Part shown: piece after piece, positions 16,147 to 16,297 of the stretch
Layout: each line of letters opens with the position of its first letter
Numbering within the stretch: position 1 is the stretch's first letter
Assembly: GCA_947626875.1 (NCBI GenBank)
Contig: CANQTV010000001.1
Span: forward strand, 34,924-98,923
Length of the DNA stretch: 64,000 bases
DNA from: an uncultured Clostridia bacterium
GTDB taxonomy: Bacteria > Bacillota > Clostridia > TANB77 > CAG-508
Direction of reading: 5' to 3'
Program-made: the position numbers and the translations under genes
Notes under the pieces: model-generated
Seen by the model: the letters and a program-made list of their open reading frames with translations, nothing else
Database searches by the model: none
What the model was told of the DNA's origin: nothing

Positions 16147-16297
16147 GGAATTGGGGCCGGGAATCGGGGACGCCCTTTTTTTCCCTATGCTATTTTTCCC
16201 TCTTTGCAAAGAAATAAATATTTTATAATTAATAAACAAAGAGGGAAAAATAGCATAGGGAAAAAAAGGGCGTCCCCGATTCCCGGTCTCAATTCTC
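16147..16297. repeat. GC-rich long palindromic intergenic element, copy 1
   Basis: Perfect 50-nt arms CCGGGAATCGGGGACGCCCTTTTTTTCCCTATGCTATTTTTCCCTCTTTG (16157-16206) and their complement (16237-16286) around a 30-nt AT loop. Degenerate GGAATTGGGG units lie outside. The arm core is shared with the copies at 37051 and 60271. Confidence 0.9.

Follow-up and report, generated by a model that had tools for sequence, protein, structure and literature searches.

Three long palindromes at gene boundaries

We analyzed a stretch of 64,000 nucleotides (nt) from an uncultured Clostridia bacterium (GenBank assembly GCA_947626875.1, contig CANQTV010000001.1, positions 34,924 to 98,923), which is referred to below as the window and numbered from its first nucleotide. 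Three long palindromes lie at gene boundaries in this DNA, the GC content of which is 23 to 32%. Each palindrome contains a repeat module in two inverted copies and is designated a doublet. The doublets and the genes whose stop codons they adjoin are as follows.

16147 to 16297, neither strand assigned: doublet 1, with a left arm (16148 to 16206), an AT-rich loop of 30 nt (16207 to 16236), and a right arm (16237 to 16295)
37051 to 37218, neither strand assigned: doublet 2, with arms at 37051 to 37118 and 37151 to 37218 and a loop of 32 nt (37119 to 37150)
60271 to 60536, neither strand assigned: doublet 3, with arms at 60282 to 60362 and 60446 to 60526 and a spacer of 83 nt (60363 to 60445)
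16304 to 16648, minus strand: MazF/PemK gene, stop codon at 16304 to 16306
37215 to 38087, minus strand: Ogg gene, stop codon TAA at 37215 to 37217
60536 to 61207, minus strand: Tmk gene, stop codon TAG at 60536 to 60538

The arms of doublets 1, 2, and 3 are 59, 68, and 81 nt long and display 97, 100, and 95% complementarity, respectively. A preliminary description of the window, made from the letters alone, had placed three palindromes with long, almost mismatch-free arms at these positions, and this holds. In doublet 3, the inner 45 nt of each arm are locus-specific sequence, and allowing a 1-nt indel lets the outer unit stretch the palindrome to 60271 to 60536. Folding of doublet 1 as DNA gave -71.9 kcal/mol (z = -16) and folding of doublet 2 as RNA gave -140.6 kcal/mol (z = -18). 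The repeated units within the arms are located as follows.

16166 to 16188, plus strand: 23-nt core GGGGACGCCCTTTTTTTCCCTAT in the left arm of doublet 1; mirror copy at 16255 to 16277, minus strand
37078 to 37100, plus strand: core in the left arm of doublet 2; mirror copy at 37169 to 37191, minus strand
60282 to 60304, plus strand: core in the left arm of doublet 3; mirror copy at 60504 to 60526, minus strand, with the variant GGGGACGTCC
37055 to 37082, plus strand: two tandem 14-nt outer units (CCGGGAATTGGGGA, twice) of doublet 2; mirrored at 37187 to 37214, minus strand
16157 to 16170 and 16273 to 16286: single outer units of doublet 1
60272 to 60285 and 60522 to 60535: single outer units of doublet 3
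16147 to 16156 and 16287 to 16295: degenerate extra outer unit of doublet 1

The sequence GGGGACG(C/T)CCTTTTTTTCCCTAT is common to all three palindromes (six occurrences versus none expected). With at most one mismatch, the 23-nt core is present in six copies in the window versus 0.00 in 100 shuffled sequences, and the 14-nt outer unit, with at most two mismatches, in eight copies versus 0.04 expected. The palindromes are real and are not explained by chance. Doublets 1 and 2 differ at four of about 50 arm positions, and each difference is mirrored in the opposite arm. Their inner arms both consist of a second TTTCCCT unit, which is also present in the repeat flanking a transposase-like gene described below; the variant GGGGACGTCC likewise recurs in the left repeat beside that gene. 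The shared core of the preliminary description was recovered in all six arms, its statement that the inner arms are different fails for doublets 1 and 2, and its outer unit of about 13 nt is 14 nt long. The outer units may also have G-quadruplex potential.

Doublet 1 sits between mazF and a convergent gene encoding an HD-domain protein (stop codon at 16141 to 16143), the TAG of which lies 3 nt before the palindrome; the TAG of mazF lies 8 nt from the degenerate outer unit. Doublet 2 fills the gap between the stop codon of ogg and the ribosome-binding site and start codon of addB (ATG at 37036), and addB starts 14 nt beyond the palindrome. The motif CCGGG is directly contiguous with the TAA of ogg and with the TAG of tmk. 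The adjacency to the stop codons of mazF, ogg, and tmk noted earlier therefore means direct contact for the latter two genes and a distance of 8 nt for the first. Doublet 3 lies between the tmk stop codon and the promoter region of an ornate, large, extremophilic (OLE) RNA (59586 to 60176, minus strand; full-length Rfam match, 335 bits), with a promoter-like TTGGAA-17-TATAAT just downstream of the palindrome on the OLE side. No T-run follows the stem of any of the three palindromes and a terminator scan of the window did not call them, in agreement with the initial view that they are not canonical terminators.

A chromosomal repeat family of uncultured gut Clostridia

A scan for the exact core was performed with one genome per species. 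The genome containing the window is absent from these species representatives, and the closest locus shows about 83% identity. In all, 31 genome stretches contained the exact core; each comes from a genome bin of uncultured Clostridia, and they include about 20 (at least 20) loci in Clostridiaceae S24_Bin1 and about 9 in Clostridium sp. 26_22. A metagenome scan added 103 stretches, essentially all from the human gut. Viral contigs and plasmids contained no match, indicating that the repeat family is chromosomal. A scan of Joint Genome Institute (JGI) metagenomes for the window-type outer signature (CCGGGAANNGGGGACG...) gave no match. The preliminary description had regarded confinement of the core to the three palindromes, combined with unrelated sequence lacking a target-site pattern at the corresponding positions of relatives, as an argument against a mobile or functional family; the core is instead widespread and, as described below, its sites vary.

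In the relatives, the module comprises 35 to 60 nt, reads (g)TAGGGAAAtaaa-GGGGACGCCC-TTTTTTT-CCCTAT-ctaaaa-TTTCCCTAt, and has the core at its center. The overall module of about 45 to 60 nt can be written (TAR)-[CC]GGGAAT-N-GGGGACG(C/T)CC-T7-CCCTAT-N4-TTTTTCCCT. Modules are composed of repeated (T)AGGGAAA and TTTCCCTA units in direct and inverted order, and the 23-nt core is invariant across species, unpaired positions included. The outer unit of the window aligns with (T)AGGGAAAT, the outer portion of the module in related genomes, CCGGGAAT-T being aligned to the TAGGGAAAT portion. In sister lineages the module forms a hairpin, AGGGAAAnAAAGGG-GACG-CCCTTTTTTTCCCT (-19.9 kcal/mol, z = -3.4), and often begins with (G)TAGGG.

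A profile of the module retrieved 176 copies in 140 loci. The 18 pairs are all convergent inverted doublets, with no true divergent pair. Paired modules of S24_Bin1 form inverted repeats of 34 to 55 nt that enclose unique native intergenic sequence, and no shared body was found among their interiors. Widely spaced inverted cores (0.6 to 1.4 kb; L012, L013, and L022) were considered as candidates for elements with cargo genes, but their interiors are ordinary genes, such as adk and xseB, indicating that these cores are independent singlets. The window has three doublets in its 64 kb, and two further modules surround the transposase-like gene on a separate contig. GA-rich tracts such as aaaagggaaagaggaaaaaggaaaaagg occur 30 to 50 nt out on the outer side of many S24_Bin1 modules (L005, L007, L011, L016/L030, L018, and L023) and may represent either purine-rich tails of genes or tandem outer units that have decayed.

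In 108 of 143 cases, it is the outer end of the module (GGGAAA/GGGGAC) that points toward the nearest gene (binomial p = 7e-10). After removal of identical sites, this end is located at a median of 2 nt from stop codons (n = 67) and of 18 nt from start codons (n = 40), in the latter case just upstream of the ribosome-binding site. The TAG of the module itself frequently doubles as the stop codon. The 97 classifiable sites comprise 80 with co-directional, 14 with convergent, and 3 with divergent neighboring genes, divergent intergenic regions being depleted relative to the background (p = 0.024). The same type of distribution has been reported for repetitive extragenic palindromic (REP) sequences (PMC3733652).

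Orthologous sites are filled, empty, or variant

Comparison with relatives revealed presence and absence of the elements at orthologous sites. At the locus about 83% identical to the window (L001), a doublet of 100 nt separates a stop codon from the next ribosome-binding site, where the window has 24 nt. The gap between the HD-domain gene and mazF in a relative of 71% identity (L065, 10630 to 10695, corresponding to window positions 16144 to 16303) is occupied by a canonical bidirectional terminator in place of doublet 1, with an A-tract, a stem, and a T-tract (AAAAAAAGTTGTAATACAA-ttat-TTGTATTGCAACTTTTTT).

For the gap between ogg and addB, the comparison covered four relatives. The gap reads TAA-[168-nt doublet]-TTAgaa-AGGAG in the window and is empty in L155 (2064 to 2083), with an 18-nt intergenic sequence, TAA-aaaagaa-AGGAG (TAAaaaagaaAGGAG). 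L152 (2080 to 2158) contains a different palindrome of 100% complementarity (TTGTGTCCATTTGGGGACGGTCCTTTTTTGGACATTTG-tct-mirror), and L153 (2098 to 2160) yet another perfect one (GGACAATTAGGGACGTATCTTTTTTGTCCC-ttt-mirror), with the related cores GGGGACGGTCC-T6-GGAC and TAGGGACGTATC-T6-GTCCC. The occurrence of three different palindromes and of an empty site suggests either that this gap has been repeatedly targeted or that it contains an old insert tracking the repeat family of each lineage.

In several human gut contigs, one left flank is joined to differing right flanks exactly at a module (L053, ~10610; L060, ~1308; L065, ~1468; L050, ~2021; L040, ~4327; L123/L037; L106/L079), so that modules coincide with synteny breakpoints. 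These breaks may be real rearrangements or insertions or else chimeric joins at the repeat; one apparent break is an indel of 65 nt. Strains of about 99% identity also differ by an insertion of about 65 nt just inside the module (L121, 2282 to 2344, and L080 versus L039, L043, and L014), which contains a promoter-like TTGAAA-N17-TACAAT.

A Y1 transposase-like gene is bracketed by the repeat

The preliminary description had likened the palindromes to substrates of Y1 transposases and had seen no such gene in the window. A homologue search confirmed this absence. In repeat-centered loci totaling about 1.1 Mb, searched with Y1-transposase consensus sequences, a single match adjoined a module. The encoded protein, P0001 of S24_Bin1 (259 amino acids), passes the Pfam Y1_Tnp threshold. 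The gene order fer4 (ferredoxin) -> Y1_Tnp <- LPG_synthase is conserved in three genomes, whose Y1_Tnp proteins are 54 to 88% identical. S24_Bin1 and a relative with an 88% identical protein (L140 and L144) have the gene at the same place between inverted modules, one directly past the ferredoxin stop codon and the other directly past the Y1_Tnp stop codon. The third orthologue, P0004 (L149; 255 amino acids, 54% identity), is found in unchanged synteny, and in each of the three genomes the gene is flanked by the module of its own lineage. P0004 is encoded in ENA assembly ERZ27249462 and in Logan run ERR10663698, which also hold the exact Tmk and MazF proteins of the window at similar coverage; because of this shared assembly, run, and coverage, its contig is probably part of the same genome as the window.

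P0004 is bracketed by inverted repeats of 60 nt that are 92% complementary, the left one being GGGAATAGGGGACGTCCTTTTTTTCCCTATTTATTTTTTCCCTATTCAAAAATTCCCTAT. As in the arms of the palindromes, these repeats carry the block GGGAAT-N-GGGGACG(C/T)CC-T7-CCCTAT-...-TTTTTCCCT, and they are 79 to 86% identical to all six arms of the window over the common 43 nt. More distant members of the Y1_Tnp clade (47 to 50% identity) are flanked, at a similar distance from the gene, by inverted repeats of 34 to 35 nt containing GGGGTCGG or GGGGACGG (L157, 259 to 292 and 1161 to 1194; L158, 275 to 309 and 1161 to 1195).

P0004 scored 37.3 bits against Pfam Y1_Tnp (cut-off, 23) and contains a histidine-hydrophobic-histidine (HUH) motif, N59-H60-A-H62, followed by Y120-x3-N124-P125. 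Residues H60, H62, Y120, N124, and P125 are invariant across 40 homologues, and Y---NP is the signature of class-2 TnpAY1 proteins (PMC6006769), which resemble RAYTs, the tyrosine transposases associated with REP sequences. The best NCBIfam family of the protein is REP_Tyr_transpos (NF047646). A profile of the family alignment matched TnpAREP of E. coli (PDB 4ER8) with an E value of 3.9e-7, versus about 1 for IS200/IS605 transposases; a PDB search with P0004 as a single sequence was uninformative, returning a spurious spike-protein match and 4ER8 at E = 0.16. Using the AlphaFold model of P0004 (predicted local distance difference test score, 87.7), Foldseek ranked 4ER8 first (E = 7.3e-7; target-normalized TM-score, 0.71), above ISDra2 and IS608 TnpA. 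The model also predicts, with confidence, a C-terminal helical domain (residues ~190 to 254), for which similarities to helix-turn-helix proteins were sub-threshold (HTH_37, E = 0.03; CylR2 and sigma-28, E = 0.1 to 1.2). The Y1_Tnp gene is single-copy, vertically inherited, and RAYT-like.

Proposed spread of the doublets by a RAYT-like enzyme

We consider it likely that the palindromes are doublets of the type known as REPINs, i.e., REP sequences paired into hairpins, formed by inverted modules of about 45 to 60 nt, and that they belong to a family of low-GC gut Clostridia that is tied to, and has been spread by, the single-copy HUH-Y1 gene. This interpretation is based on the coexistence of singlets and inverted doublets, the mirrored changes, the extragenic distribution, and the syntenic gene bracketed by the repeat. 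The resemblance to REP sequences and bacterial interspersed mosaic elements in the preliminary description is borne out by P0004, which is flanked by the same sequence block and has RAYT proteins as its best matches; a role of the palindromes as its substrates would follow by analogy. Given the observed family, anatomy, placement, association of gene and repeat, and presence or absence at orthologous sites, the palindromes most likely represent small, mobile hairpin elements that are non-autonomous.

By analogy with E. coli TnpAREP and IS200/IS605 TnpA, the enzyme would recognize either the module or the doublet hairpin in single-stranded DNA present at replication forks, cleave this DNA, and rejoin it. 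Copies would be seeded into short intergenic gaps that adjoin ribosome-binding sites and stop codons and might be excised precisely from these gaps, singlets would be decayed or partial copies, and inserted hairpins would come to occupy the usual places of terminators or operon spacers. The long hairpins may plausibly have secondary effects on transcripts, serving as barriers at 3' ends, as RNase III substrates, or as weak terminators or terminator substitutes, a role in the host that is suggested by their placement, by the terminator replaced at doublet 1, and by the position of doublet 3 just upstream of the OLE promoter-like site. Catalysis by P0004, the single-stranded DNA mechanism, and the RNA-level role are what we infer from these parallels.

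The REP/REPIN-RAYT systems known from Pseudomonas and from enterobacteria (Nunvar 2010; Bertels & Rainey 2011, PMC3116915; Ton-Hoang 2012, PMC3333891) share with the present one short extragenic singlets and inverted hairpin doublets, arm pairing kept by compensatory changes, which have been reported to be common in REPINs (PMC3116915), a single-copy and vertically inherited HUH-Y1 gene between inverted repeat copies, an arrangement called a REPtron, and a preference for co-directional or convergent gaps downstream of coding regions; TnpAREP (4ER8) is also the closest solved structure. The present host differs in being a low-GC Firmicute, the known systems being those of Proteobacteria. The arms in the window (59 to 81 nt) are far longer and essentially perfect, and the tandem 14-nt units at their outer ends are a further difference. 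P0004 is also longer than the known RAYTs (255 amino acids, with the C-terminal helical domain).

Several observations weigh against the proposed interpretation. The local REP-like hairpin of the window-type module is weak (-12.5 kcal/mol, z = -1.1) and lacks a clear GTAG foot, the window type beginning with TAA/TAG-CCGGG and a 5' GTAG being found in some sister-lineage copies only; a REP unit is an imperfect palindrome of 20 to 40 nt and has a GT[AG]G foot at its 5' side. Singlets account for 140 of the 176 modules in other genomes and thus outnumber doublets in the sister genomes, whereas doublets dominate in Pseudomonas. The proteins score 60 to 67 bits (60.7 to 67.1) on NF047646, under the curated cut-off of 80. 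Its contig was assigned to the genome of the window by shared assembly, run, and coverage rather than by physical linkage. Selection by the host for some function, instead of simple selfish spread, could account for the variant doublets at one site and for the very tight placement relative to stop codons and ribosome-binding sites. Finally, mobilization by P0004 is proposed from the comparison with related enzymes; neither a transposition event nor an excision junction nor enzymatic activity was seen.

Another parallel is provided by the TIRtrons, or TIRYTs (Di Nocera et al. 2013, PMC3733652), which have been equated with TnpAY1 subclass 2.1 and with RAYT group 1 (PMC3733652, PMC6006769, PMC5581495); RAYT group 1 has been reported in Clostridia, with moderately repeated flanks. 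In both cases, long terminal inverted repeats (34 to 60 nt here) in place of classical REP sequences lie on either side of a RAYT-like gene, a GGGG(A/T)(C/G) motif recurs at a fairly constant distance from the gene (GGGGACGC/T here, GGGGACGG or GGGGTCGG elsewhere in the clade), moderately abundant repeat families are scattered as monomers and dimers, and the protein has a C-terminal extension, a feature typical of subclass 2.1. The TIRtron consensus GGGGWSAS (PMC3733652) differs from GGGGACGY, GGGGACGG, or GGGGTCGG, position 7 being G (7/8 match). The C-terminal helix-turn-helix of TIRYTs (Bac_DnaA_C-, HTH_23-, or HTH_28-like) is weakly suggested in P0004. The flanking repeats form hairpins and hairpin doublets, whereas a published survey reported none of the REP-like kind beside subclass 2.1 genes (PMC6006769). 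As judged by the repeat motif and the extended protein, the system would also fit the TIRtron/TIRYT variant.

IS200/IS605 elements and their palindrome-associated derivatives have an HUH-Y1 core in common with the present system. Recognition of hairpin DNA with no need for target-site duplication would by analogy be another shared trait, and precise excision, which is possible for these elements, would suit the empty orthologous sites. In contrast to IS200/IS605, the present gene is single-copy and syntenic across species rather than multi-copy, it has inverted repeats at its ends in place of separate left and right subterminal hairpins, and P0004 is nearer to TnpAREP than to IS608 or ISDra2 TnpA in both sequence and fold.

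Alternative origins of the palindromes

The elements could primarily be host RNA elements, selected as 3'-end protectors, unconventional terminators, or operon punctuation cleaved by RNase III, with their spread being secondary or a result of convergent selection. The median distances of 2 nt from stop codons and 18 nt from start codons, the terminator that stands in place of doublet 1 in a relative, the position of doublet 3 between tmk and the OLE promoter-like site, and the retention of different perfect hairpins at a single ogg-addB gap (window, L152, and L153) would all suit such a function, and REP sequences are known to stabilize mRNA and terminate transcription (PMC3733652). As compared to Rho-independent bidirectional terminators, which occupy the same places past stop codons and between convergent genes, the palindromes have no U-tract, their stems are 5 to 10 times longer than usual, and their core is conserved across loci and species. 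A search of Rfam with the palindromes returned no family at the gathering threshold, and a permissive scan gave sub-threshold matches to generic microRNA hairpins only, on both strands. A host RNA origin also sits poorly with the conservation of sequence as well as structure, down to the unpaired positions of the core, with the symmetry of the elements on both strands, with the empty ogg-addB site, and with the transposase-like gene bracketed by the same repeat. An RNA-level role is compatible with REPIN-like doublets as an additional layer rather than as a substitute, and we regard it as unlikely to be their primary explanation.

Long terminal inverted repeats and variable occupancy of orthologous sites would also be expected of MITEs (miniature transposable elements with inverted repeats) derived from a classical DDE-type insertion sequence, such as an IS630/Tc1-like element, and mobilized in trans via these repeats with duplication of a TA target. 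Doublet 2 is indeed surrounded by TA (cTA-ACCGGG...CCCGGT-TAg), and TA occurs within 1 to 2 nt of doublet 3; yet TA is expected by chance at 27% GC, the flanks belong to the palindrome itself, and no direct-repeat target-site duplication beyond this ambiguous TA was found at the palindromes. The repeat-centered loci of about 1.1 Mb revealed no DDE transposase with these termini, in a search that was aimed at Y1 enzymes and not exhaustive for DDE, and the only transposase-like gene that this Y1-targeted search found bracketed by the repeat is the single-copy syntenic Y1_Tnp. Most copies are single ends, and the pairs of sister lineages enclose unique native sequence rather than a shared body. 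This also separates the doublets from ERIC, Correia/NEMIS, RUP, bcr1, and EFAR, the MITEs known as RNA hairpins. Those elements are likewise 100 to 270 bp long, have inverted ends, insert beside coding sequences, and are likely co-transcribed and able to change the fate of mRNA, but they are DDE-derived and have a shared internal body and target duplications, whereas in the present family repetition is confined to the end module, loops or local sequence make up the interiors, and a Y1 nuclease is the linked enzyme. We therefore rate a MITE origin as very unlikely.

Recognition by a nucleoid or regulatory protein of the host, for which TAGGGAAA or GGGGACG motifs inverted at gene boundaries would serve as binding sites, might explain why (T)AGGGAAA and TTTCCCTA units recur in direct and inverted order, and E. 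coli REP sequences bind IHF, gyrase, and DNA polymerase I (PMC6006769). This explanation is highly improbable, since symmetric arms of 59 to 81 nt are far larger than an operator, the modules are located mostly past stop codons, not at promoters, with a depletion in divergent regions, no candidate regulator was identified, and the association with Y1_Tnp accounts for the family more simply. Fold-back chimeras can create long perfect palindromes and contigs frequently break at these sites, but an artefact of assembly or amplification deserves virtually no credence because doublet 1 is base-identical in two other independent assemblies, the tmk-proximal arm of doublet 3 is identical in three other assemblies, whose short-read contigs then end inside this doublet (L032, 3673 to 3744; L033; L034), and numerous metagenomes and genome bins contain homologous doublets.

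Other features of the window

An open reading frame (59014 to 59550, minus strand) immediately after the OLE RNA encodes a membrane-like polypeptide of 178 amino acids with no Pfam match, which may be an OLE-associated protein. Between a methyltransferase gene and the HD-domain gene is a quasi-palindrome with 34-nt arms of 74% complementarity (14831 to 14898); it was classed as terminator-like on both strands and has no relationship to the repeat family. A weak and partial resemblance to the inner TTTCCCTAT units of the module (19801 to 19827; E = 0.13) is located at the 5' end of a minus-strand open reading frame and probably arose by chance. Rfam also identified the following RNAs.

1564 to 1658, minus strand: tetrahydrofolate riboswitch aptamer (60 bits)
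3416 to 3486, 51779 to 51849, and 51886 to 51958, minus strand: three tRNA genes

Implications

To our knowledge, work on REP/REPIN-RAYT systems has been almost confined to Proteobacteria. The present family provides a compact, sequence-defined example in uncultured Clostridia of the human gut, the relatives of which have genomes about 1.6 Mb in size. Since systems of this general type have been described before, what is added is a lineage and some unusual anatomy, with unusually long and perfect doublets, rather than a principle. With the repeat, its cognate gene, and orthologous sites in filled, empty, and variant states now available, the putative enzyme-substrate pair is directly testable. 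The repeat family also accounts for the fragmentation of short-read assemblies from these organisms at certain intergenic sites: many contigs with the Y1_Tnp gene measure about 950 nt (L141 to L147 and L151), indicating that assemblies break at the flanking repeats.

A more far-reaching proposal, which we put forward tentatively and consider doubtful as a whole, is that this is the first clearly delimited system of the REPIN-RAYT type in Firmicutes, that it supplies TnpAY1 subclass 2.1 (RAYT group 1), a large group so far lacking a substrate, with a genuine repeat family that forms hairpins, that the enzyme targets the few nucleotides separating stop codon and ribosome-binding site, and that the symmetrized hairpins have been co-opted as operon punctuation replacing intrinsic terminators. 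If true, such co-option would explain why three related species keep lineage-specific doublets between ogg and addB. The family marks sites at which long hairpins may stand in for terminators, one of them immediately upstream of the gene for the OLE RNA.

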